A DNA stretch of 30,451 bases from a virus (taxonomy: Duplodnaviria; Heunggongvirae; Uroviricota; Caudoviricetes). Below are positions 1 to 30,451 of this stretch, one piece after another. Within the stretch, counting starts at the first letter, position 1. The number at the start of each line of letters is the position of its first letter. Location of the stretch: positions 1-30,451 of the IMG/VR virus record IMGVR_UViG_2728369554_000010; one strand, 5' to 3'. A model generated the notes under the pieces. The model had not been told where the DNA came from and did no database searches. It saw only the letters and a program-made list of their open reading frames with translations. A program made the position numbers and the translations under genes.

Positions 1-996
1 TTAACGAACCAGCCAGACCAGAATCAGGATAATCGCGACTAACAGTATCCACAGCGCGGGACGCGTTGCCATATTTTGCAACGTGTCCATCATCGGTGGA
101 AAAGGATTAAGCAGCGGTTGCATATCACGCGGCTCAATCCCTTTAACCCGCCGTTGATAAAGCTGGTTAAGAATATCCTCGGCCTGGGCAGAAGAAAGCG
201 ATGATTGCGCAGAAAGGCCATATTTTTGCTGGATATATGCCGATAACGCCGCCAGTTCACTGGCATCTAAAGGTTGTTTTAGCGCCATCTGTAGTGATTC
301 CAGTGTCGGCGTATTTTGCTGGCTTAGCGTCTGACGCGCCTGTAGCCAGGTCACCAGATGGTTAAACAGTTTCGCTGGAATTAACTCGCCATCTTTCACC
401 CCGGAAAGTTCCAGCATCGATTGCCAGATCTGTTTGCTGGGTTCCCCCGTTGCTGCCGCAAGTTTGGTCACCAGCTGTTTGAGCGCATTGTGCTCCGCCG
501 GTAATAAAGGACGGTCGGTCGCCTCGCGCTGCTGTGGTTGCGGAATAACCATCTTCCCTTCCTGCAACAGGGTGAGAATGGTTTTTAATTGCTCCGGTGA
601 GAGCTGATTCAGCGGCGTCTGACCAAAGTTATGACGGATATAATCCGTGACCGCCTGACGATTATTCCCCAGACGTAAATACTCCCCTAATTGCGCTAAA
701 AGCTGGCGGGCAGAATGGCTTTTTTGCGCGGCCAACAGACGTTGCGCCAGATTATGCTCAGCGGCAGGGAAGTGACGCGAAAGCAGCGGTGAATCTCCCG
801 ACAGACCAATATCGTGCCTGATACCCGCCCACAGTTCTGCTCTTTGTTGTTGCGTCAGTGAGGTCACTTTCGTCATTAAGCTTTCCAGCGAAGTACGTTG
901 CTGACTGGATAAAGGCTGATTGCCCGCGCCAGACGGCAGGTTATCTCCCTGACCTGGTGGTTGCCCAGGAGGAGGGCCGGAAATAGGTTGTATCAT
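1..996 (-). CDS. flk: Flk-like flagellar regulator, C-terminal membrane anchor (chromosomal flank)
   Basis: 331-aa ORF; Pro/Gln-rich N-terminus (MIQPISGPPPGQPPGQ) and C-terminal hydrophobic anchor (ALWILLVAIILILVWLV) match my recollection of E. coli Flk; core-genome-like composition. Confidence 0.75.
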   Translation of the reverse strand: MIQPISGPPPGQPPGQGDNLPSGAGNQPLSSQQRTSLESLMTKVTSLTQQQRAELWAGIRHDIGLSGDSPLLSRHFPAAEHNLAQRLLAAQKSHSARQLLAQLGEYLRLGNNRQAVTDYIRHNFGQTPLNQLSPEQLKTILTLLQEGKMVIPQPQQREATDRPLLPAEHNALKQLVTKLAAATGEPSKQIWQSMLELSGVKDGELIPAKLFNHLVTWLQARQTLSQQNTPTLESLQMALKQPLDASELAALSAYIQQKYGLSAQSSLSSAQAEDILNQLYQRRVKGIEPRDMQPLLNPFPPMMDTLQNMATRPALWILLVAIILILVWLVR

Positions 997-1315: not shown

Positions 1316-2056
1316 ATGCTTCATTGGGTTTGTACAAAATGTCAGTCTAAAAATTCTACGAAGGAATCAGTGTGTCCTGCGTGTGGAACTTCTTTTTGGT
1401 CGACGCAGAAAAAAGAAAGGAGAGGGTGTTTATTGTTGGTTGTAATGTTTTTCGTTGTGTTTTGGGTTATTGGGCAATTATCCGGAAACGAATCCGATTC
1501 ACAGGTAAATAATATTCCATCGAAAGATCATATTAGTGATGAACTTGCTTTATCTGGAGTAGACAAGGCGAAACCGTATTCTTTTGTGCGTTATGATGAC
1601 ATAAGTTATGCGGGACGAAAAAGATTTAAGGTTTTTATAGTGTCGCCTGAGTCTCAAGATTTAGAATCAAGAGCTTCGACAGCAATGGCCGCGGCTATTG
1701 AGTGGCAGAAAGAGAAAAGAGCTGACTTTGTATCTGTGTTGCTTCTACCTACGGAAAATTCTGAAGGTAGTTATCGGTTGGCAATGGTTGATTATTCTCC
1801 GGATGGTTGCGGAACTGGTGCTGTATGTGATAATAAAAAATGGACTATATTGTCTAGTGACGTAATATTAACGAAATCGCAACTTCAATCTATATCCTTG
1901 TGGAATGAGTATAAGAAAAAGTTTGCGGGTAATAATGAGATTTTGGATTTAAAGGAAGAAAAGAAATTGAAGCAGTTTATTAGTAAACAGCTAAATATTC
2001 CTGTTAAGGATGTATTTACTCCAGATATTTTTCCTTTAAAGAAAATCGAAGATTAA
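1316..2056 (+). CDS. Hypothetical zinc-ribbon membrane protein (N-terminal C-x2-C...C-x2-C, one TM helix, about 190-aa C-terminal domain)
   Basis: 246-aa ORF with GGAG 8 nt upstream of ATG; CTKCQ...CPACG motif then hydrophobic LLLVVMFFVVFWVIG; strongly AT-rich relative to flank, suggesting horizontal acquisition. Confidence 0.6.
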   Translation: MLHWVCTKCQSKNSTKESVCPACGTSFWSTQKKERRGCLLLVVMFFVVFWVIGQLSGNESDSQVNNIPSKDHISDELALSGVDKAKPYSFVRYDDISYAGRKRFKVFIVSPESQDLESRASTAMAAAIEWQKEKRADFVSVLLLPTENSEGSYRLAMVDYSPDGCGTGAVCDNKKWTILSSDVILTKSQLQSISLWNEYKKKFAGNNEILDLKEEKKLKQFISKQLNIPVKDVFTPDIFPLKKIED

Positions 2057-2103
2057 CAAAATAAATAGACGAGACTGAATTAGTATTATTGTAATCTTTA
2101 ACT

Positions 2104-2165
2104 GGCACCCTCACTTGTGAGGGTGCCAAAAAGAAAACCCGCAGTTTTTACGCTGCGGGTTTCTG
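2104..2165. terminator. Convergent terminator region with two hairpins between the zinc-ribbon gene and the YafO-like gene
   Basis: GGCACCCTCA-CTTG-TGAGGGTGCC, then A-tract, then CCCGCAG-TTTTTAC-CTGCGGG flanked by T run; reads as terminator on both strands. Confidence 0.5.
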
Positions 2166-2182
2166 GGAGAAAATCGGGCTAT

Positions 2183-2563
2183 TTATGAGTTCTGGAATTC
2201 TTCAGCCCGTCTTTCCAGTTCAGCCATGAAAGAAGTTTTGGCTTTTTCGTGAGCATCTGGGGCCATGATGCTGATGATTTGTATATTGTCATAATCCATC
2301 CAGTGCCTTGTATAAACCAGATAGATATTTGAAGTTCTGTCTATTTGGGCTTTGCTTTTCTTCCATGGTGGTTCTGACGGTAGTCTTATGTGTAATTTAT
2401 ATACAAACGAACCACATAATCTTGCGTTATCTTCCCACTGCCCTTCATTGCCGAATCTGTCAGGGAGAACACCGGTATTTAACCAGTTTTCCAGAGCCTT
2501 TCCGTAAACTTTTGCAATGTCCTGGTATTCAACATCTTTATGAATGCTTACTTTGCTTGCCAT
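2183..2563 (-). CDS. YafO-family toxin-like protein
   Basis: 126 aa; motifs GVLPDRFG, HIRL, YLVYTRH, IISIMAPDAHEKAK, MAELERRAEEF align with my recollection of E. coli YafO (GVLPDIFG, HIHL, HLVYCQG, LIAILKPEPHKLAR, MAEAF); start overlaps the upstream stop. Confidence 0.5.
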   Translation of the reverse strand: MASKVSIHKDVEYQDIAKVYGKALENWLNTGVLPDRFGNEGQWEDNARLCGSFVYKLHIRLPSEPPWKKSKAQIDRTSNIYLVYTRHWMDYDNIQIISIMAPDAHEKAKTSFMAELERRAEEFQNS

Positions 2564-3189
2564 CAGGAAAACTCCGGTGCCGGGAGTCCCATGTTTTTAT
2601 GCTCGGCAATAATCATTGCTTTCACATTTCCGTCAGACAGCGTATTGCCCAGGCTGGTTGTTTTGTCTGGTGCGGTGCTTCGTTTGATGGTGTTGATGGC
2701 ATCACGAGCGATAAACTCTCCCTGCGCAATTGCCCGACCAAAACGAACCAGTTTATTGCGATAGGCGATTCTTTGCTCTAGGCTATCCGGATACATTTTT
2801 GCCAGGTTATCCGGATCCATTACAATTTTGACAGCCTCTTTAACACGGGTGTGCTGCTTAATTGACTCTTCGCATATTTTTATGATTTTTGCGGTTTTGT
2901 CAGTAAACAGTGCTCCCTTGCCTCTGTTCTGTCGTTCTTCAATGACTGCATTGAGCGCGGCGCGCATGTTGTCATTCAGCCCGTTGATATATTCAATAGC
3001 TTCTTCGAGAGGCAGAAACACCTGACCATCATGATGCTCAAATGTAAGCATTGAAACCACTCTGGCGTGTGTCGCGGATTCAATAACTGTTGTTGGTAGT
3101 ATCGTGCTTTTAGCTGGCACCGGAGCCAGTGATGCTGTCAGAGCTGTAGTAATAGCAGCAATGGCAGCAGACTTTGATTTTCGTTTCAT
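2563..3189 (-). CDS. Hypothetical signal-peptide (secreted/periplasmic) protein, translationally coupled to the YafO-like gene
   Basis: ORF 2563-3201; preferred start MKRKSKS at about 3189 with GGAG 6-7 nt upstream; N-terminus has basic n-region, Ala/Thr-rich h-region and PVPA-K cleavage-like site; no resemblance to YafN/Phd antitoxins. Confidence 0.5.
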   Translation of the reverse strand: MKRKSKSAAIAAITTALTASLAPVPAKSTILPTTVIESATHARVVSMLTFEHHDGQVFLPLEEAIEYINGLNDNMRAALNAVIEERQNRGKGALFTDKTAKIIKICEESIKQHTRVKEAVKIVMDPDNLAKMYPDSLEQRIAYRNKLVRFGRAIAQGEFIARDAINTIKRSTAPDKTTSLGNTLSDGNVKAMIIAEHKNMGLPAPEFS

Positions 3190-3261
3190 AATGCACTCCA
3201 CAGGTTGATGTGTTCAGCATATCGCAAATAGCAGCTTGTATAAAGAAACGCCACATCAGCA

Positions 3262-3523
3262 GCGATCGTTTTACGCGCTTTTCTTCTTGTTGCGATCCTT
3301 TTTTTCAGTTTTATTTTGGAGCTTAATTTTGTGCAGGCCGCGCCGTGTCTGCCTTCTTTGTTTGATGGCTGTTTGATGCGATCCTTTCGTGATCGTTTTT
3401 TTGTCTCGCGTAAAGTATGAAAACTCTTTTAATATCATGCGGTTTTATTGCTCCGGCCATTTGTGCGATCGTAAAAACCACTTTGAAAACTGCAAAAAAT
3501 TTCAAAGCGTGAAATTTCAGATC
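3262..3523. promoter_or_regulatory. GATC-rich intergenic region with repeated GCGATC(G/C)TTTT-like motifs
   Basis: Six GATC sites in about 260 bp (near 3264, 3294, 3380, 3391, 3467, 3520), several inside a reiterated GCGATC-T-run motif; lies upstream of the secreted-protein/YafO-like operon. Confidence 0.35.
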
Positions 3524-3628
3524 TTCGCTTTTCCCTCAGTTGCTGCGCGGGCTGGCGGTCATTTTTGCACGGCAGAAAACTGAAAAACTGTTTCGACACG
3601 AAACCCGCGGGTTGGAGGGGGTAGCGCG

Positions 3629-3671
3629 GTTTACGTCACCTCACGCTTTACGTCACACCGTTTACGCGGTG
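3629..3671. repeat. Three direct repeats of TTTACG(T/C) motif (iteron-like) near the prophage boundary
   Basis: GTTTACGTCAC, CTTTACGTCAC, CGTTTACGCGG at 15-17 bp spacing; adjacent GTTTCG-ACA-CGAAAC and AACCCGCGGGTT palindromes at about 3586-3612. Confidence 0.4.
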
Positions 3672-3789
3672 TGCGCATACAGCGCCAGAATGGCACGCAG
3701 AACGCATTAATCAGGTGGCAGATATGAAAACGCACGACCGGAGCCGTGCGTTGCGTGATGGGCGTTTATGGGGGTGGTATGCCCGGTGA

Positions 3790-5487
3790 TCAGGCGATAA
3801 GGTCACCGTATTTTTCGCGCAGGCTCGTAGCCTGTTTGGCGTCTGCGGCAAGTTCGCTGCTGTTTGTTGGTGCGCCGGTGTTGCTGTGGGTGTGGTTTGC
3901 AGTGTGTGTGGCCAGCAACTGAACCAGATCCAGAATATCAATCAACAACGTCAGCAGATTAAGTCCGGATTTTTCCCGTGAGCCACCGCGACCAATAAAT
4001 ACTGTCGGGGCTGTAAACTCCAGACCACCGTCCGCCCGGCATGTTCTGCGGCCTCCCACGTTTTCAGTAAGGTCGCGCTCAATCGTGGATGTCGCCCCTT
4101 TGAGTTTAGTCAGCAAATCCTGCGCTACCATCTGGATATGCTCACCGGCTGCGATCGCATAATGACCAGTAGTAATGTGTTCTGTCTGGCCTGTCATCAG
4201 CTTGCTGGTTCCCAGAACGCTGGTTATGTCGTTTGCCTGTACTGTTGTTGTTCTGGTTGTTGTTGTGCGTTCTTCCTGATCGCTGTTAATGGTTCGTCTG
4301 GCTGAATGCTCCCTGATTTGCTGATCGGTTTCTCTGTGCCAGCTTCCGTCAGTCGTGACGCGCTGAAACACTTCTGCGCGCTGTTGCTGCAGCTGTTCGC
4401 CGGGCTTTACATCAGGCAGGTTATGGCCAGCGGGTAAGATTTGCCTGATAACGGGTTTGTCCGGACGTCCTTCAATGTTGGATATTTCCACGATGGTGCC
4501 TGCCGGTGGGTAGGCAAAACATCCCGCCTCACTGCCAGCCATGGGGACGGGGAGCGGTACTGCCGGGTAAACGGGCGTGTCGCTTTTATCGTTGCCGTTC
4601 TCATCAAGCAACTGCACATCGACGGCGTAGCGTGGGCGGAAACTGTCGGCCACGTCGCCCAGGGTGGTGGGCTCCGTTGGCGCAATGACGCGCGCCAGCC
4701 GGGTATGTAGCGTACCGCTGGCCAGTTCCGGGAACTGTGTTTCCATTTGTCTGCGTAATGGTGATTTGGAAACAGGGTTACCCGTGGCGGTAAGGCGCTC
4801 CCATGTCAGGGTCATTTTCTCGTTGTTGAGGGCTACACGGGTAATGCGCCCGGCCGGTAGGTTCACGCCCGGTCGCACAGTTTCCATAAACATGATGTCG
4901 ATGCTGTTTCCGCCGCTTTGCCCGAGTGTGTACTGTTGCGGAATATCCGGTATTGTAATACTGGCAAATCGTGAATCAGCTGCGCTTCCCACAAATACAG
5001 AACCGTCCGGCATAGGGTGCCAGACGTAATCGCTGATACTGAATGCTCGCCCCAGTTGGCTGAGCAGTTGTGCTCCGCTGCCACTGTGGGTGATGTAGGG
5101 AGTTGGTATACTGGCATAATCCGCATCCGGAGTGATAAAAACGATACCGCTTTGTCGCCCCAGATTATCGAGTACCCCCCGCAACGTCGGGTGTTGCATG
5201 GAGCAAGGGAAATCAAAATCCAGCACAGCAGCCGCTTCACGAATAAAAAGGCGACGTGAGCCATTTTCAGCAGGTTGATCGCGCTCAATGTAGCCGGAGA
5301 AATAGCGCCATGCTTCACCGTCACGGCCGAGATCAATTTGTACCATTGCGCCGGCAAGGCTGTGTTCGGGTGACAGATTGTTAACAGAAATGAAGCCACG
5401 ACCGGCAGCATTCAGGGTAAGAACAAGGCTTATATCGGCAATTTCCACCTGTTCGCCATTAATCATGCAGCGTTGTATCAATTTCAT
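3790..5487 (-). CDS. Phage tail protein, putative baseplate central spike/hub-like (C-terminal HxH apex-like motif)
   Basis: 565 aa; last gene of the late operon, start overlaps upstream stop; C-terminal LLATHTANHTHSNTGAPT resembles the His-rich apex of P2 gpV-type spikes (from memory); function not certain. Confidence 0.4.
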   Translation of the reverse strand: MKLIQRCMINGEQVEIADISLVLTLNAAGRGFISVNNLSPEHSLAGAMVQIDLGRDGEAWRYFSGYIERDQPAENGSRRLFIREAAAVLDFDFPCSMQHPTLRGVLDNLGRQSGIVFITPDADYASIPTPYITHSGSGAQLLSQLGRAFSISDYVWHPMPDGSVFVGSAADSRFASITIPDIPQQYTLGQSGGNSIDIMFMETVRPGVNLPAGRITRVALNNEKMTLTWERLTATGNPVSKSPLRRQMETQFPELASGTLHTRLARVIAPTEPTTLGDVADSFRPRYAVDVQLLDENGNDKSDTPVYPAVPLPVPMAGSEAGCFAYPPAGTIVEISNIEGRPDKPVIRQILPAGHNLPDVKPGEQLQQQRAEVFQRVTTDGSWHRETDQQIREHSARRTINSDQEERTTTTRTTTVQANDITSVLGTSKLMTGQTEHITTGHYAIAAGEHIQMVAQDLLTKLKGATSTIERDLTENVGGRRTCRADGGLEFTAPTVFIGRGGSREKSGLNLLTLLIDILDLVQLLATHTANHTHSNTGAPTNSSELAADAKQATSLREKYGDLIA

Positions 5488-23398: not shown

Positions 23399-25186
23399 AT
23401 GGCGTATTCTGATGAGGTGATTGCTGCTGCAAAATCGCTCTATCTGAAAAGACACACACCAAAAGAAATACAAAAGAAGCTCGGACTGAACAGCCCGCGA
23501 ATTGTTTATTACTGGGCGACAAAGTTTGAGTGGTACACACAGCTTAATGCTGAAGGCGTGGAGGATGTTATCGCTCGTCGTCTCGCTGTACTGGCGGAGC
23601 GTGATCATAAAACGCCGGAAGAGCACGATGAACTTGATCGCCTGATTGGTCATCACGTCAAACTGATGTCGGTCAGGAACAAGCACACGGAACGCATGGC
23701 CGAGATTGAACGAATGGGAGCGGATATTCCCCAGTCTGGTCGTTATGGAAAAGAAGAACGCGGAGAAAAAGGTGCAGGTAAGAAAGAGCGCCCCCGCAAA
23801 GCTAATGACGTTTCCGGACTGACTGCTGAAAGTTTTGAGCCGTTTACGAAAAAGTTGTTTGCTTATCAGTTGCATCTGCGTGAAAACAAATTCCGCCGTG
23901 TACGCAACCTGCTTAAATCCCGCCAGATTGGGGCGACGTATTACTTCGCGTTTGAGGCATTTGAAGATGCAGTATTAACCGGCGACACACAGATATTTTT
24001 ATCGGCATCAAAACGTCAGGCCGAAGTGTTCCGTACTTATATTGTAAAAATTGCACAAACAGAGTTTGGCATTCCCATTAAAGGCAATCCGGTTAAGTTA
24101 AGTAATCTGGCTGAACTGTATTTTCTGGCGACCAACAGTAACACAGCGCAGTCAAACAGCGGCCACCTGTATATTGATGAATACCTGTGGATCCCCGGTT
24201 TTCGCCGTCTCAATGAAGTGGCATCAGGGATGGCCACCCATAAACACTGGCGCATTACCTATTTCTCCACGCCGTCATCCAAAACACACCAGGGTTACCC
24301 GTTCTGGTCTGGCGATGAATGGCGCAAAGGCGATCCGAAACGAAAAGGGGTTGAGTTTCCGTCCTTTGATGAGCTGCGCGATGGTGGGCGTGAATGTCCG
24401 GATGGTCAGTGGCGCTATGTGGTTACGCTGGAAGATGCCATTGCCGGCGGCTTTAACCTTGCTGACATCAACGAGCTGCGCGAGCGATACAACGAAACAG
24501 CGTTCAATATGCTGTTTATGTGTGTGTTTGTGGATGACAAAGAGAGCGTCTTTAAATTCGATGATCTTGTGCGTTGTGGTGTTGATGTCAGTACGTGGGA
24601 GGATTTTCACCCGGAAGAGCCCATGCCATTTGGTAACCGTGAAGTGTGGGGCGGCTTTGACCCTGCGCGCTCCGGCGATAACGCCACATTTGTTGTGCTG
24701 GCACCGCCGCTGGTTGCGGCAGAACGATTCCGCGTGCTGGAAAAACACCACTGGCGCAGCATGTCATTCCAGTTTATGGCAGAGCGTATCCGCAGCATTA
24801 AGGCGCGCTATAACATGACATTTATCGGCATTGACGTCACCGGTCTTGGCTACGGTGTCTTTGAGCTGGTTCAGGGATTTGCCCGCCGTGAAACAGTGGC
24901 CATTCATTACAGCGTGGAATCCAAAAACCGCCTGGTGATGAAGATGCTGGATCTGATTTACGCCAACCGTATTGAGTGGGATGAAGAAGCCACGGATATT
25001 CCGGCATCGTTCCTGGCCATTCGTCAGGAATCCACCAACAGCGGCAATAAAGTCACTTTCACCGCCGAACGTAGCGAAGAAACCGGGCACGCTGACATCT
25101 TCTTTGCCATAGCTCATGCCGCAAGTAATGAACCCCTGAACTATAAGCACAAGCGCAAATCAACATGGATCCTGTCAGATGAGTAA
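23399..25186 (+). CDS. P: Terminase large (ATPase) subunit, gpP-like
   Basis: 595 aa; GGTGAGG SD; motifs KSRQIGATYYFAFEAF and IDEYLWIPGF typical of P2-type terminase; overlaps portal start by 8 nt. Confidence 0.85.
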   Translation: MAYSDEVIAAAKSLYLKRHTPKEIQKKLGLNSPRIVYYWATKFEWYTQLNAEGVEDVIARRLAVLAERDHKTPEEHDELDRLIGHHVKLMSVRNKHTERMAEIERMGADIPQSGRYGKEERGEKGAGKKERPRKANDVSGLTAESFEPFTKKLFAYQLHLRENKFRRVRNLLKSRQIGATYYFAFEAFEDAVLTGDTQIFLSASKRQAEVFRTYIVKIAQTEFGIPIKGNPVKLSNLAELYFLATNSNTAQSNSGHLYIDEYLWIPGFRRLNEVASGMATHKHWRITYFSTPSSKTHQGYPFWSGDEWRKGDPKRKGVEFPSFDELRDGGRECPDGQWRYVVTLEDAIAGGFNLADINELRERYNETAFNMLFMCVFVDDKESVFKFDDLVRCGVDVSTWEDFHPEEPMPFGNREVWGGFDPARSGDNATFVVLAPPLVAAERFRVLEKHHWRSMSFQFMAERIRSIKARYNMTFIGIDVTGLGYGVFELVQGFARRETVAIHYSVESKNRLVMKMLDLIYANRIEWDEEATDIPASFLAIRQESTNSGNKVTFTAERSEETGHADIFFAIAHAASNEPLNYKHKRKSTWILSDE

Positions 25187-26213
25187 AAAGAAAAAATACC
25201 CCGTGTTACACGATGGCGTGGCAAAAAAAACAGCCAGCAAAATGACTTTTATTGAATTTGGTGACCCGGAACCGGTCGCAGCATGGGGCTGTTATTACGG
25301 CTCGCTCTGGGATGGCTATAACGGCTGGTACACACCGCCCATTGAGCGCATGGATCTCGCCATGTTGTCCAATATCGCACCGTATCACGGCGCGGTATTG
25401 CGTGCGCGCGTCAATATGATCATGCAGGGTTTTCGGGGTGGTGGTGGTATGACACACGCCGCCATGGCGGCAGCAGTAACCAATCTGCTGATATTCGGGG
25501 ATATGGGGTTGCTTAAAGTGCGCAATGGCTTCGGTCGAGTGGTGCGCCTGCATACGTTACCTTCTCTGTACCTGCGGCGTAACAACGAGGGTGGCACGGT
25601 GATTGTGCAGGCGGCACTGGAAGATCTCGTTTACCCGCCAGGCGAAGTAGTGTTCGTGGCCATTTATGACCCGCAACAGCAGGTTTACGGTGTCCCGGAT
25701 TATATTCACGGGATGGAATCTGCCATGCTGAATGTGGATGCCACCCGCTTTCGCCGCAAGTATTACAAGAACGGCGCACATCTTGGTTATATCCTGTATT
25801 CCACTGACCCGGACATGGATCCCGAGCTCGAGGCGGAATTCCGTAAAAAGATAGAGGCGTCAAAAGGGGCGGGCAATTTTAAATCCATGTTTATCAATAT
25901 ACCTGGCGGAGACAAAGAAGGCGTTAAGGTGATCCCTATCGGAGATTCAGGTACAAAAGATGAGTTCCTGAATATAAAAACTATCAGTGCCCAGGATCAG
26001 CTCGTTGCGCACCGTTTTCCACCCGGGCTTGCCGGCATCATTCCCGCAAATACGGCCGGGCTTGGTGACCCACTGAAATCCCGCGAGGCATATTACAGGG
26101 ATGAGGTTATCCCGATGCGCCGCCTGATTATGGAGGGGATCAACAGCGACCCGGATATCAGACGACTGGGGGAGGTGAAATTTATTCTTGATTTTGATGA
26201 ACCCATGGAGTGA
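25179..26213 (+). CDS. Q: Portal protein, gpQ-like
   Basis: 344 aa starting MSKKKK; FRRKYYKNGAHLGYILY and GAGNFKSMFINIPGG parallel P2 gpQ as I recall it. Confidence 0.85.
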   Translation: MSKKKKYPVLHDGVAKKTASKMTFIEFGDPEPVAAWGCYYGSLWDGYNGWYTPPIERMDLAMLSNIAPYHGAVLRARVNMIMQGFRGGGGMTHAAMAAAVTNLLIFGDMGLLKVRNGFGRVVRLHTLPSLYLRRNNEGGTVIVQAALEDLVYPPGEVVFVAIYDPQQQVYGVPDYIHGMESAMLNVDATRFRRKYYKNGAHLGYILYSTDPDMDPELEAEFRKKIEASKGAGNFKSMFINIPGGDKEGVKVIPIGDSGTKDEFLNIKTISAQDQLVAHRFPPGLAGIIPANTAGLGDPLKSREAYYRDEVIPMRRLIMEGINSDPDIRRLGEVKFILDFDEPME

Positions 26214-26555: not shown

Positions 26556-26607
26556 CAACCCGGAACGGGCGCACAAAGAATTTGCGCACCCGTTCCGGGT
26601 TTTCTTA
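26556..26607. terminator. Long hairpin (AACCCGGAACGGG...CCCGTTCCGGGTT) with T-run between convergent ogr and rrf2-like genes
   Basis: About 13-bp near-perfect stem with nested inner stem, followed by TTTTCTTATT on the plus strand. Confidence 0.5.
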
Positions 26608-26964
26608 TTCAATGGCAGACAACTGATAATTTGTGTCTTCCTGCAGGCTGGTTAAAGAAATATTATCCAGTGCAGCCAGAATAACGTGCTGTGTATATAA
26701 TCCGGAACATTTCATTGCCCGGACAATATCACCAACACTGTAATTTTCTTTTGTCGGGATATATCCACCACCCGGGCCGCGTGTGGCTTTTACCAGGCTA
26801 CTTTCCCGTAAATATCTGAATATTTGCTCCAGATATGACAGTGAAACGGTTTCTTTGCTTAATTGCCGGAGCGAGATTGGCTTTCCGGTGTACTGTTTCA
26901 CAAATTTAATCATTACCATAACTGCAACTGATGCACGCTGGCTTCCGGAATTATCTTTCATCAT
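26605..26964 (-). CDS. Rrf2-family winged-helix transcriptional regulator (short form, no Fe-S cysteine cluster)
   Basis: ORF 26605-27030; preferred start MMKDNS at about 26964 with GGAAG upstream; VSLSYLEQIFRYLRESSLVKATRGPGGGY matches the Rrf2/IscR recognition-helix signature; about 119 aa. Confidence 0.6.
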   Translation of the reverse strand: MMKDNSGSQRASVAVMVMIKFVKQYTGKPISLRQLSKETVSLSYLEQIFRYLRESSLVKATRGPGGGYIPTKENYSVGDIVRAMKCSGLYTQHVILAALDNISLTSLQEDTNYQLSAIE

Positions 26965-26975
26965 GATTACTTCCA

Positions 26976-27263
26976 TTAATGGCATAAATTGATGGAGCGG
27001 GTCAGTGAATAAAGAGGCAATACATTCCATCCCTTAGAGCGCCAGCTGTCTGCAACATCTTTACTTCTTGTTATCGCCGGTATTCCAATAGGATTATTTG
27101 CGTGCATCCATGCCACTGGCTCTGCTTCCAGTGATGCAAGTGCGATTTCCAGTGCGATTAACATATTGTGATCGTCTTCATCAAGACCGAACGGGATGTC
27201 TTCGCGCCACGATTTAAACTCTGTGATTTTACGTTGTAACCATTCTTTGGTAATGGTGGACAT
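26976..27263 (-). CDS. Hypothetical protein (95 aa) in the par operon
   Basis: ORF 26976-27281; preferred start MSTITKEWLQ at about 27263 with AGGAG 5 nt upstream; 14 nt downstream of the parR-like stop. Confidence 0.4.
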   Translation of the reverse strand: MSTITKEWLQRKITEFKSWREDIPFGLDEDDHNMLIALEIALASLEAEPVAWMHANNPIGIPAITRSKDVADSWRSKGWNVLPLYSLTRSINLCH

Positions 27264-27277
27264 AGTTACTCCTGTTT

Positions 27278-27592
27278 TCACTTCGGGAAAAACGCCTGAA
27301 TATTCTTTTTCACCTGCTGCATATGGGGGGCGCTGTCTGCTGCTGGTTGCGCCGGTTTTTCAGGCTGTACTGGTAGCGGTGGCATCCGTATTTCGTCTTC
27401 TGACCATTCTGCCAGCGAATACGCCAACGCGGGGGTGCGTTTTATAAGAGCCAGTCCGGCCAGAAAAGCCGCGCGTTGTGCGCGGCTGCGTTCGGAGGCT
27501 GGCAGGCTGTCGAGGTAACTGCACGCCTCCCGTTCGCTCTTGACGACGGCGGGCTTCAGATAGAAACTTATCCGTCTGGTTGGTGTCGTCAT
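27278..27592 (-). CDS. parR: ParR-like centromere-binding partition protein
   Basis: ORF 27278-27721; preferred start MTTPTRR at about 27592 with AGGAG inside the parM 3' end; ISFYLKPAVVKSEREACSYLDSLPASERSRAQRAAFLAGLALIKRTP parallels plasmid R1 ParR as I recall it. Confidence 0.6.
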   Translation of the reverse strand: MTTPTRRISFYLKPAVVKSEREACSYLDSLPASERSRAQRAAFLAGLALIKRTPALAYSLAEWSEDEIRMPPLPVQPEKPAQPAADSAPHMQQVKKNIQAFFPK

Positions 27593-27596
27593 TGAT

Positions 27597-28556
27597 TTAC
27601 TCCTTGTCCATTGCGTACAGCCCATTAACCAGAGCAAACTGTGGCACCCCGTCCGCGATGAAAGTCGCATTAACTCCGCAGGCTTCGCGGATAGCGGGTG
27701 CCACAATCTCTGCCCCTCCACCTACAACCATCACCCGCCCGTAACCCGAAAAACCCGCCAGCGCGCGGATCACGCGTTGTTTCAGTGTTTCTTCCTTTTC
27801 ACGAATAACAGCCATCAGGCTGGCGTAATGTGCGTTATTGTGGATGTGCTGGCGCAGCCAGGCTTCATCGTGGCGATGTTCGATAATGGTATTGGCGATG
27901 TGGTGACTGGTGCGCATACCGTTAGTGGCCATTACCGACAGTACGGCATCGGCCATCAGGGAAACGCCTACGTGTGGATCGCAAAACACCTGGCTGATAC
28001 CTGCCAGTTGCCCCTGAACCTTTGCCACATCCAGCGTGGTTCCGCCCAAATCCACAATCAGCAGGGATTCAAACGGACTCATGTCAGCCAGTGCTTTAAA
28101 GCCAGCCGGAATGGATTCAGGCATAACCCGCACGTTACGGATAGTGAATGCCTCGCCGTTCTGGTACTCCACCGGGCGCATAACGTTCGCTTTTTTGCGG
28201 TTGATGTTGGCCATGTCCGGCTGTGCGTTTGTGTCGAAATACTCGCTCAGTGGCAGGGTGACAACCACATCCACCTCCTGTGGCGTGATGCCTGATTTGA
28301 CCAGCGCATGATGAATGGCAATGACATTCACATCGCTGTACTGGTATTGCGTGTCGGTCGTCTGGACAAAGCGATCGCTGACCGGATCAAAACCATAGCG
28401 CACGCCATCAAGCATGTAGTTCGCGGGCTGCGTGCCACCGAACGGCGCAGACCATTCTGACTTGAAGCTGTTCGGGCTGATGGCGTTGCGGCGTTCGCCG
28501 TTCTCAGTCCATGCCAGCTTGATGTTGGTGGATCCGTCGTCGATACAAATTTTCAT
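27597..28556 (-). CDS. parM: ParM/StbA-family actin-like plasmid segregation ATPase
   Basis: 319 aa; MKICIDDGSTNIKLAW...ISPNSFKSEW...YQYSDVNVIAIHHAL...LLIVDLGGTTLD...VMVVGGGAE parallels plasmid R1 ParM along its length (from memory). Confidence 0.8.
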   Translation of the reverse strand: MKICIDDGSTNIKLAWTENGERRNAISPNSFKSEWSAPFGGTQPANYMLDGVRYGFDPVSDRFVQTTDTQYQYSDVNVIAIHHALVKSGITPQEVDVVVTLPLSEYFDTNAQPDMANINRKKANVMRPVEYQNGEAFTIRNVRVMPESIPAGFKALADMSPFESLLIVDLGGTTLDVAKVQGQLAGISQVFCDPHVGVSLMADAVLSVMATNGMRTSHHIANTIIEHRHDEAWLRQHIHNNAHYASLMAVIREKEETLKQRVIRALAGFSGYGRVMVVGGGAEIVAPAIREACGVNATFIADGVPQFALVNGLYAMDKE

Positions 28557-28574
28557 GTCGCTTTTCCTTATGTT

Positions 28575-28700
28575 GATTAATTAATCGGTTACAGGATTTT
28601 TAAATCCCGTTTTCGCCTGTTTTGTGCGCGCTTCATATATCACGGCGCGTTTTTTGCTCATTTACGGGATTTGTGAATCCTGTTTTTGTCTGTTTTTTGT
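28575..28700. repeat. Centromere/operator-like repeats upstream of parM: GATTAATTAATC palindrome plus two about 38-bp direct repeats each with GGATTT-N3-AATCC
   Basis: Palindrome about 20 bp upstream of parM ATG; repeats TTACAGGATTTTTAAATCCCGTTTTCGCCTGTTTTGTG and TTACGGGATTTGTGAATCCTGTTTTTGTCTGTTTTTTGT about 73 bp apart, the second inside the 3' end of gene A. Confidence 0.4.
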
Positions 28701-30451
28701 TTCCACTGGTCAGGCCACCCCGCAGCAGGTCTGCTTTGCGGCGGGCGCGTTCAGTTGTTTCACTGATTCTCTGTGCGTGCTCTGCGTCACGGATGGCGCG
28801 CAGCATGTCAGAAAGCACGGTAACGGGGGTTTTCATGGTGTTCTGGTCCTGCTGAAGTGTGGATGCCAGGCGTGCGGCGGCTTCGGGGTCTGATGCCCCC
28901 AGCTGTTCCAGATAGCTGGCGACCGGGTTATGGCGGATCCCCGTGCTGCTTACGCCGTGATTACGGCTCAGGCGCTGCCAGAGCTGCGTGATTCGGCTGT
29001 CCGGGCTGGTATCCGGTTTGCGTACAATTTCAAATCCCTGCGGTGCAATGATGCTGCCGTCAACGTACAGGCTGCCGCCCCGTAACAGGTGCTGCATCTG
29101 CTGTTCACCGATATGCAGGCCGAGAGATTCAGCAGACTCCCGCCATTCTTTAGCGAGTAACTCGTGGTTATCAGGCAAAGGCTGTGGCTGTTTGCGGCTC
29201 TGTGTCCAGTTCTGCATTTCATCACTGCTGTTTTTTGCCTGTTTGTCACGCAGCGAACGCATCAGCGCCCGGCGTTCGTGCCGTTTCAGTGAGCGCATCC
29301 ATTCATTCACGTCAACGCTGTCAGGAAGCTGCGGCCACGGTGCTGGCCGTTCTTCCGGCTGTTCTGTCCCGTTGTTGTCCGTTTCCTGTACACGGGGACA
29401 GTTATTGCCACGAGTCCAAGGGGCGGCAGGGCCGCCCTGAAGGTCAAAACCATTTTCGCGGGCGCTGTCTTCCGTTTCCGGTTTACGTCTTACCAGCTTC
29501 CAGTTATCCGGATGCGTGCACACACGGGAGGATTCCCCGATGAGTGGCGACCAGATCCCGTAAATCTGTACGCTCTGTTCGCCGTAATCGTTCAGCTCAT
29601 CTGCGAGGTCGTAGGCGGTGCGAATCAGGTAGTCTTTGCGTGGAACAAGAACGCCGCCCTGTTTCTCTATGTAGGTGGCAAAACATCCGGCATCAGCGGC
29701 AGCAAGAACCGCATCCATTGCGTCATCCTTCAGCCGTTGCGGGCCTTCCGGGTTGCGTGCCATCTGGCTGGCAAGGCGGCGCAGTTCACGCCACACCTGA
29801 CGGGAGGGGATGNNNNNNNNNNNNNNNNNNNNNNNNNNNNNNNNNNNNNNNNNNGTGAAGGCGCGCCCAGCCGATAGCGCGCTCCACGCTCTCGGCCATT
29901 GATTTTCCGGTTTCATGGTCAACGCGTGGCTTGCCCGTTTTTGGGTCGATACCATCCACGGCGCGGCTGCTCAGGTTTTTTCCGATGTAGGTGGCGATGT
30001 AGCTGGTTGGCGTGCCTTTTGAGCCGTCGACGTACTCCGCTTTAAAACGCGGAGTTATGTCATCGCCCAGCTCGTGGCGGTCTTCCTGAATGGCAATATC
30101 GCGGGTGATGGCCACGATGCTGTCGATTTCTTCCGGATGAGCAAAGACCATCATATGCCAGTGCACAGTGCCGTCATGGTGAGGCTCCACCGTGCGGATG
30201 CCATACCAACGAAGGCCGTCGCGGTTCAGTTTTTTGCGGACCGCTGCAAAAAACGTGTTAACCAGGTAATCGCTGGAGTCGCGCATGGTGGCCCCGTTCC
30301 ATTTGGGATTCGGATGACCGTTCTCTGTTGTGGCATGGTATTTTGACGGGCAGGTGACAGTCAGAAACACCGCTCTGTCGCCACGGGCTTCGGCCAGAAG
30401 TTCCAGCCCCTTCATGGTGGCCATCATTTCTGCCTTACGGTGAACCGGGTT
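28633..30451 (-). CDS. A: Replication initiator gpA-like (rolling-circle, HUH-type), 5'-truncated by window edge and split by a gap
   Basis: Two ORF-track pieces (28633-29955, 29786-30427) in different frames across the N run; reading frame stays open to position 30451; contains GTVHWHMMVFA HUH-like motif. Confidence 0.65.
29813..29854. other. Assembly gap (42 N) inside gene A
   Basis: Run of N in the sequence; flanking A fragments are in different frames, so the true gap length is unknown. Confidence 0.95.

Follow-up and report, generated by a model that had tools for sequence, protein, structure and literature searches.

A plasmid-type ParM/ParR gene pair as a constant component of the replication module in P88-like and related P2-like phages

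The stretch of DNA analyzed here, a 30,451-nt piece of the tailed-phage record IMGVR_UViG_2728369554_000010 (positions 1 to 30,451; the whole stretch is referred to as the window), comes from a P2-like prophage and contains an actin-type ParM/ParR gene pair that is real and canonical in kind. The first gene, parM (27597..28556, minus strand), codes for an actin-like segregation ATPase of 319 aa, and the second, parR (27278..27592, minus strand), for a candidate ribbon-helix-helix centromere-binding adaptor of 104 aa. We find that P88-like and related P2-like phages share a replication module consisting of gene A and parMR, of which parMR is a constant component. Together with two repeats upstream of parM, the pair may well constitute a type II ParMRC system of this module that acts on extrachromosomal circles of the phage genome, and our analysis makes us lean, by a modest degree, toward this reading. 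The observation as such is already known, since the genes are named in RefSeq, in the records of the phages P88 and phiSM, and in PHROG, and since about a quarter of P2-like phages have been described to carry a putative partition system, for which a phage-plasmid suggestion was made (Rousset et al., 2022; PMC9122126). In addition, the phiSM paper lists the partition protein as a fitness factor (PMC6456863). Our search of the literature on the parMR genes of P2-like phages and P88 gave passing mentions only, and no functional study was found. What the present analysis adds is that parMR is a backbone component linked to gene A, that this association extends over multiple genera, that the constraint is strong, and that the copies are near-exclusively chromosomal.

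The ParM and ParR proteins

The initial annotation, which was made from the sequence alone, had recognized the two proteins as ParM-like and ParR-like, and profile searches bore out both family assignments. ParM matches the Pfam families StbA_N (1.8e-82) and ParM C-terminal domain (1.6e-68), and among the PHROGs it matches family 691, 'partition protein' (2.3e-90). The suggested parallel to the plasmid R1 protein along the length of ParM also holds, as residues 2–316 align to the structure of R1 ParM (PDB 1mwk, E=1.9e-92) and as the two proteins share 46.5% identity over the full length in BLASTP. The nucleotide-binding motifs DDGSTN, DLGGTT, and GGGAE are retained at the R1 positions. We compared parM in 87 related loci, which derive from phages, plasmid records, and 80 IMG/VR contigs, and none of the 87 copies contains an internal stop codon. 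With a dN/dS of 0.04–0.05, parM is under strong purifying selection.

ParR matches Plasmid_stab_B in Pfam (4.4e-24) and PHROG 2515 (7.3e-44), and there is a weak match to the structure of the pB171 ParR (2jd3, E=0.009). Its diversity is far above that of ParM, with 48 distinct proteins among 85 loci, and its dN/dS is 0.29 over codons 1–64. The N-terminal strand MTTPTRRISFYLKP is near-invariant, with R6–P14 being identical in 47 of the 48 variants, the linker at residues ~65–90 is hypervariable, and the C-terminal tail NI(R/Q)A(L/F)FP is again conserved. The tail motif N-x-x-x-(L/M/F)-F is common to the phage ParR and plasmid ParRs. This pattern fits what is expected for a ribbon-helix-helix adaptor whose linker is flexible and whose tail would bind ParM. 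The ParR of the E. coli P88 type (103–104 aa) is devoid of some 25 residues, in a region that aligns to TTISQIRHLISSVLP and that is kept in plasmid ParRs as well as in those of the phages from Hafnia, Plesiomonas, Serratia, and Enterobacter. In one of the related loci (L014), a frameshift truncates ParR to 79 aa, which represents a decay variant.

Linkage of parMR to gene A

Upstream of parM lies the 3′ part of gene A, which encodes a replication endonuclease of the P2 GPA family and is truncated by the end of the window (28633..30451, minus strand). Among 5426 complete E. coli genomes, parM is found in 1292 (~24%), with full length in 1279, and the latter number corresponds to ~94% of the 1355 genomes in which the adjacent 1.1 kb of gene A is present at full length. 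All 87 related loci have a parM of 97–98% nucleotide identity, and in 14 Xuanwuvirus phage records the ParM proteins are 95.6–99.7% identical on amino acid level; matches to ParM within the phage collection came only from Xuanwuvirus records and from D6. The segment that comprises parMR and gene A is 93–96% identical to P88 and other Xuanwuvirus (Peduoviridae) genomes, and parMR follows directly after gene A in all Xuanwuvirus records, the order in P88 being gene A, parM, parR, different small genes, and portal. When the prophage of the window is compared with P88 on amino acid level, GPA is 97% and ParM ~100% identical, whereas identity is only 30% for the portal protein and 36% for the large terminase. 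As gene A and parM are thus shared with P88 while the portal and large terminase genes are unrelated, parMR travels with the replication module and not with the head genes.

The parMR genes of P88 and the other Xuanwuvirus phages (gp17–gp18 in NC_026014) therefore represent the same system as the one in the window, with 99.7% identity of ParM, the same place after gene A, and the same upstream repeats, and the P88 record gives the products the names 'plasmid segregation protein ParM' and 'partition protein'. The window differs from P88 in its ParR allele, which is 53% identical, in the two small genes orf95 and the Rrf2-like gene that replace gp19–22, and in the unrelated portal and terminase.

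The comparison of window positions 23399–26213 with P88 (L002) indicates a modular hybrid, in which one replication/partition module is joined to unrelated structural modules. The annotation of a closely related twin, the EC42405 prophage, lists a tail set with tape-measure, DUF2586, and DUF2590 proteins, and the tail of the P88-like record NZ_CP148288.1 is instead of the P2 type, with tube, gpE, and baseplate V/W/J/I. A scan of the genome contigs with ParM gave only three near-identical loci, and one of these is on a 226-kb contig labelled as Vagococcus sp. WN89Y, a Firmicute (NZ_JBQPOM010000071.1, L007). The ParM of this contig shares 98% identity with that of the E. coli prophage and the upstream region is the same, and most likely we are dealing with a contamination or a mislabelled assembly.

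Synteny across genera

More divergent ParMs were found by a search of 5.8 billion proteins in combination with contig look-ups. ParM relatives with 54–63% identity are encoded in prophages of Hafnia, Plesiomonas, Serratia, and Enterobacter, and the gene order is the same in all four contexts: Phage_GPA, parM, parR (Plasmid_stab_B), a variable set of genes (such as HicAB or a KAP NTPase), ogr, portal, and terminase. In the Hafnia and Enterobacter loci, one or two small open reading frames (ORFs) are positioned between GPA and parM. At identities of 53% or less, the matches belonged to an integrative and conjugative element (ICE) and to Rep3 plasmids. Pairwise comparisons across the four genera gave 54–63% identity for ParM and 30–56% for GPA, and ParM is therefore the better conserved protein; in three of the four cross-genus comparisons it also ranked above portal and large terminase. 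In a neighbor-joining tree, calculated without support values, the ParMs with phage context form two adjacent clades that are set apart from the R1-type plasmid ParMs.

As the nearest plasmid ParMs are at most ~52% identical, a recently inserted plasmid fragment can be excluded. The idea that parMR is newly acquired plasmid cargo is refuted by this distance, by the presence of parMR in 87 of 87 loci, by the linkage to gene A, and by the synteny in four further genera.

The region upstream of parM

Gene A ends 76 nt upstream of parM, and two 38-nt direct repeats are found at this junction, 73 nt apart and each with a 20-bp palindrome. Repeat B (28589..28626), a candidate parC-like element, is intergenic, its palindrome reading ACGGGATTTAAAAATCCTGT on the minus strand, and repeat A (28662..28699), likewise a candidate centromere element, is located within the final codons of gene A. 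The upstream repeats that the initial annotation had mentioned are thus present, albeit in just these two copies. The consensus of the palindrome in 56 related sequences is ACGGGAT-N6-ATCCCGT, and half-sites of the AAAACAG type with a spacing of ~10 nt precede each palindrome. A deletion of 73 nt in the related locus L088 (4870–4968) has removed exactly one repeat unit, and this locus also represents a decay variant.

Of the four divergent relatives, three have comparable paired repeats upstream of parM. In the Plesiomonas relative, these are two 26-nt CGGGA...CCCG repeats at the equivalent position, 72 nt apart, with 4-bp arms and a 10-nt spacer, and the Serratia and Enterobacter relatives have A/T-rich inverted arms of 14–20 nt that are 26–28 nt apart. 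In the Hafnia relative, there is a single palindrome, CGGGTT-N6-ATCCCA. With two repeat sets around a core, the region in the window resembles parC, and we regard it as a candidate centromere on the basis of this resemblance.

It has to be considered that the palindromes could be RNA hairpins or terminators rather than a centromere, and that they could, for example, stop antisense transcription of the late operon that enters gene A. A T-rich tract follows each palindrome on the plus strand and one of the palindromes was called terminator-like, and three of the four strand-specific folds of the palindromes are more stable than those of shuffled sequences. However, the hairpins are weak, with −4.5 to −11.2 kcal/mol and with a z-score of only 0.16 for copy B on the plus strand, and 13 of the 56 palindrome variants have a T-to-C change in one arm that is not compensated in the other. 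Furthermore, the short-armed equivalents in Plesiomonas and the A/T-rich spaced equivalents in Serratia and Enterobacter fit protein-binding sites and not terminators. As the hairpins are weak and are not kept as hairpins in the relatives, we rejected the terminator reading and regard it as highly doubtful.

With respect to expression, gene A and parM are not separated by any terminator-like site on the coding strand, and co-expression of parMR with the early operon is therefore plausible. The element TTAATCAA (28573..28580, minus strand), ~20 nt before the parM start codon, is conserved by eye in the upstream regions of the window and of the Hafnia and Plesiomonas relatives, and it is a possible, albeit speculative, −10 element. 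Late promoters of P2 that respond to Ogr have the motif TGT-N12-ACA, and this site is absent from the consensus repeats when these are checked by eye.

Integrated prophage versus phage-plasmid

The gene flk was identified at window positions 1–996 (NCBIfam NF007987, 3.7e-152), which confirms the neighbor named in the initial annotation and indicates that the element is chromosomally integrated. The same holds for the E. coli genomes in general, as 1429 of the 1431 parM copies in the 5426 complete genomes are chromosomal, with up to three copies per genome. The initial annotation had suggested a phage-plasmid lifestyle as one explanation for the segregation genes, and as a normal state this was not borne out, with only one circular record being found.

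The idea behind this suggestion, which is also found in Rousset et al. (2022), is that ParMRC keeps the prophage as a low-copy plasmid, either routinely or in cells without an attachment site. In its favor, ParMRC is a classical stabilizer of low-copy plasmids, the P1-like phage-plasmid D6 has a ParM with 48% identity, and the suggestion has already been published (PMC9122126). Moreover, the one circular record, a complete 34,461-bp sequence deposited as an E. coli plasmid (NZ_CP148288.1; L004 and L098), contains a whole P88-like genome including parMR. Besides the almost exclusively chromosomal positions and the copy that abuts flk in the window, it speaks against this explanation that the relatives, NZ_CP148288.1 included, have integrase, Cox, and repressor, and that the sole replication gene is the P2-type rolling-circle endonuclease gene A, with no plasmid Rep being found. 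An uninterrupted attP junction was detected in none of the 442 genomes with the integrase type of NZ_CP148288.1, in a test to which junctions at the start of a record are invisible. NZ_CP148288.1 itself is either a true episome or induced phage DNA from which the assembler made a circle. The window excludes the integrase end of its own prophage copy. Altogether, we judge phage-plasmid maintenance to be unlikely, and this applies in particular to a routine plasmid state; an occasional episomal state may occur. NZ_CP148288.1 also holds hok/gef and a Com/methyltransferase pair.

A possible role in the segregation or positioning of phage DNA

As nearly all genomes carry the prophage in its integrated form, the system would act only while the phage genome is extrachromosomal. 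In the mechanism that we propose, ParR dimers would bind to half-sites of the CGGGAT type in the two 38-nt repeats at the junction of gene A and parM, the conserved C-terminal tail of ParR would capture the ends of ATP-driven ParM filaments, and the growing filaments would push sister circles of phage DNA apart, by which the copies would be spread to both cell halves or to the daughter cells. This could take place in the interval between infection and integration or, once the prophage has been excised, in the course of the gene A-dependent rolling-circle replication, and the genes might be expressed by read-through from the early/replication operon or from an own autoregulated promoter. We infer such a segregation or positioning of extrachromosomal circles by analogy to srpMRC, which serves the SXT/R391 ICEs. 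The role could lie in inheritance by daughter cells or in positioning for replication.

Some points weigh against this proposal. With the many copies that rolling-circle replication yields, active partition is less obviously needed. The candidate centromere consists of only two palindromes or about six half-sites, whereas parC of R1 has ten 11-bp iterons. The relatives of the E. coli P88-type ParR are longer and keep the ~25 residues that are missing in it. A search with the palindrome pattern gave matches solely at repeats A and B, but the pattern had been taken from these very sites and a chance estimate is therefore circular. The arms of the palindromes are no more conserved than their flanks within E. 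coli, a comparison that is uninformative because the whole region is ~95% identical. Finally, a scan for the sigma-70 consensus called no promoter upstream of parM.

The system agrees with the ParMRC systems of plasmid R1 and other IncF-type plasmids in the families StbA/ParM and Plasmid_stab_B/ParR, in the order parC-parM-parR, with the upstream repeats as the candidate parC, and in the translational closeness of parR to parM, and with plasmid ParRs in the N-terminal strand and the C-terminal tail motif. In contrast to R1, which is a theta-replicating low-copy plasmid, the phage pair belongs to an integrating P2-like phage and follows a rolling-circle gene A. It also differs in the candidate centromere of two 38-nt units with 20-bp palindromes, in the shorter ParR of 104 aa, and in the ParM clades of its own.

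The closest precedent for our proposal in terms of biology may be srpMRC of the SXT/R391 ICEs, which is expressed only on activation, stabilizes the excised rolling-circle form, and has a centromere with four repeats (PMC4489591). Both are type II partition systems in a normally chromosomal element, both are proposed to be of importance only for the transient excised form with rolling-circle replication, and both have a small number of repeats upstream of the ParM gene, which in the phage represent a candidate centromere. However, an ICE is not a phage, SrpM belongs to the IncA/C-related ParM branch, and SrpR has no recognizable ParR domain (PMC4489591). Furthermore, srpMR is co-transcribed with int under the control of SetCD, whereas the phage pair follows the replication gene A.

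A second precedent is AlpAC of the Corynebacterium glutamicum prophage CGP3, which connects the circular DNA of the induced phage with actin-like filaments and without which replication is not efficient (PMC4446434). In this case as well, the genes for an actin-like filament protein and for an adaptor that binds DNA are part of an integrated prophage, and the AlpAC adaptor binds upstream of its own operon. It differs in that AlpC is outside of the StbA/ParM family, that the adaptor gene comes first, and that the demonstrated role is one in replication efficiency in an actinobacterium. By analogy, the ParM filaments of the P88-like phages could be a lytic-cycle cytoskeleton that moves replicating phage DNA to a favorable place and raises the efficiency of replication or packaging, with no role in inheritance. 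The linkage and co-conservation of parMR with gene A and the lack of a terminator after gene A would agree with this, as would the CGP3 precedent, in which AlpA and AlpC are induced early and are necessary for the phage to replicate efficiently (PMC4446434). On the other hand, the ParM is a member of the plasmid-segregating StbA/ParM family, with 46.5% identity to R1 ParM, and is not of the Alp type. P2, 186, and most Peduoviridae replicate without any such system, and the matches in the phage collection were restricted to Xuanwuvirus and D6. We give the purely lytic role a lesser but not negligible chance.

It is also conceivable that parMR functions in the lysogen, being expressed from the integrated prophage and affecting the host or competitors, be it by partition incompatibility with incoming relatives or plasmids or by an influence on chromosome segregation. 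The adjacent slot does hold genes that are expressed from the prophage, namely defense systems and toxin–antitoxin pairs (PMC9122126), and an own promoter of parM is possible in view of the conserved TTAATCAA. However, there is no match to PADLOC, and ParR is only weakly similar to pB171 ParR (E=0.009), which makes a cross-reaction with plasmid centromeres unlikely. Up to three copies per genome argue against a strong self-incompatibility, and parMR stays constant while the neighboring defense cargo turns over. A function in the lysogen is thus very improbable.

Returning to the proposed action on extrachromosomal circles, a wider generalization is that ParMRC belongs to the core of the replication module in a multi-genus clade of integrating P2-like phages, for which it would be a cytoskeleton that serves to segregate or position rolling-circle or pre-integration genomes. 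This generalization is tentative, and we would not yet expect it to hold in full. If it is true, an actin-based machine for the positioning of DNA is present in about a quarter of the complete E. coli genomes and serves a virus and not the maintenance of a plasmid. The puzzle is why a lineage of integrating rolling-circle phages, with prophages in four or more other genera besides ~24% of the complete E. coli genomes, retains a plasmid-type segregation machine. An answer would extend the precedents of srpMRC in ICEs and of AlpAC in CGP3 to a major coliphage family, and it would settle the published guess of a plasmid lifestyle. As P88 and phiSM are inducible and plaque-forming, the question is readily testable.

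The variable slot downstream of parR

The initial annotation had treated the whole four-gene operon as cargo of a hotspot, and this has to be divided. It applies to orf95 and the Rrf2-like gene, whose presence varies among close phages, and it does not apply to parMR, which is present in all 87 loci. The orf95/Rrf2-like pair occurs in 40 of the ~1290 genomes with parM, always with at least 99% identity, and the Rrf2-like gene was found always alongside orf95. The slot between parR and portal contains at least 32 cargo types among 66 loci, among them toxin–antitoxin pairs and ATPase/TOPRIM-like pairs, and this turnover is in line with the gpA–gpQ defense hotspot (PMC9122126). The pair in the window is one rare allele of this cargo and is unrelated to parMR.

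Between loci, the nucleotide similarity collapses in the middle of parR, and the ParR allele of the window invariably comes together with orf95 and the Rrf2-like gene. The breakdown of similarity and the linkage of the ParR allele to the cargo indicate that the recombining hotspot starts inside parR. For studies that mine the gpA–gpQ hotspot, this means that the left border belongs inside parR, and that parMR is not part of the hotspot content.

That the last two genes of the operon have no obvious partition role, as had been noted initially, is in agreement with our searches. The gene orf95 (26976..27263, minus strand) encodes a small Eaa/DUF551-like mosaic prophage protein of 95 aa for which no match was found in Pfam, NCBIfam, or PADLOC. 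It matches two PHROGs without a known function (660 and 60), its relatives are named Eaa protein or DUF551, and its N-terminal and C-terminal halves turn up separately in other cargo ORFs. The Rrf2-like gene (26605..26964, minus strand) encodes a short Rrf2-family winged-helix protein of 119 aa. Its match to Pfam Rrf2 (3.9e-13) covers profile positions 2–87 of 132, corresponding to the N-terminal winged helix-turn-helix, and with the coverage ending at this point it falls short of the full-length family members, which have a C-terminal dimerization helix. It also scores below every NCBIfam cut-off (52.8 versus 73.3 for rrf2_super, 58.6 versus 207.6 for IscR, and likewise for CymR). The Fe–S ligands of IscR and NsrR are three cysteines, whereas there is only one cysteine in the 119 residues of this protein, and it is therefore not an Fe–S sensor of the IscR/NsrR type. 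Its PHROG match, 24072, is of unknown function, and tblastn against phages gave distant matches only, with 31–47% identity and an uninformative context. A PADLOC scan with all four proteins of the operon gave no match and hence no backing for a known defense role.

In other loci (L016/L077, L081/L084, L092, and L093), the slot holds alleles that resemble defense or addiction systems. These are a 399-aa ATPase with a 172-aa TOPRIM-like protein, a 360-aa AAA protein with a 734-aa protein, HicAB, and a KAP-family NTPase.

Organization of the locus and neighboring features

The layout described in the initial annotation was confirmed in its main points. The four genes are co-directional on the minus strand and tightly packed, with gaps of 4 nt between parM and parR, 14 nt between parR and orf95, and 11 nt between orf95 and the Rrf2-like gene, and the Shine–Dalgarno sequence of parR, AAGGAG, is indeed positioned within the final codons of parM. 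The coordinates also place the genes between gene A and the ogr/portal end. There, ogr and portal are located downstream of the Rrf2-like gene, past a hairpin at 26557..26601, and ogr is convergent with the Rrf2-like gene. The hairpin is an inverted repeat with 21-nt arms of 90% complementarity and a 3-nt loop that was scored terminator-like on the plus strand, and it is likely a bidirectional terminator that closes the operon. The four-gene region is found with 100% identity on annotated RefSeq E. coli chromosomes, on which the names ParM, plasmid partitioning/stability protein, and Rrf2 regulator are used.

Gene A is called 'replication endonuclease' in the 99.7% identical EC42405 prophage. 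In the window, it is interrupted by a run of 42 N (29813–29854), and identity to the EC42405 prophage is 99.7% before this run and 95% after it (29855–30451). The gap has a length of 42 nt in the window versus 27 nt in the EC42405 prophage, and the run may mark a recombination breakpoint or a masked repeat.

At the other end of the window, the region from flk to the tail genes (1316–5487) contains genes of low GC content (0.37–0.45). These include an ORF for a 246-aa zinc-ribbon/membrane-like protein (1316–2056, plus strand), a gene for a YafO-family toxin (2183–2563, minus strand) that is abutted upstream by a 212-aa ORF (2563–3201, minus strand), and a gene for a 565-aa protein with a weak VgrG-like stretch (3790–5487, minus strand). 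Positions 1–2106 of the window are absent from the otherwise near-identical EC42405 prophage.

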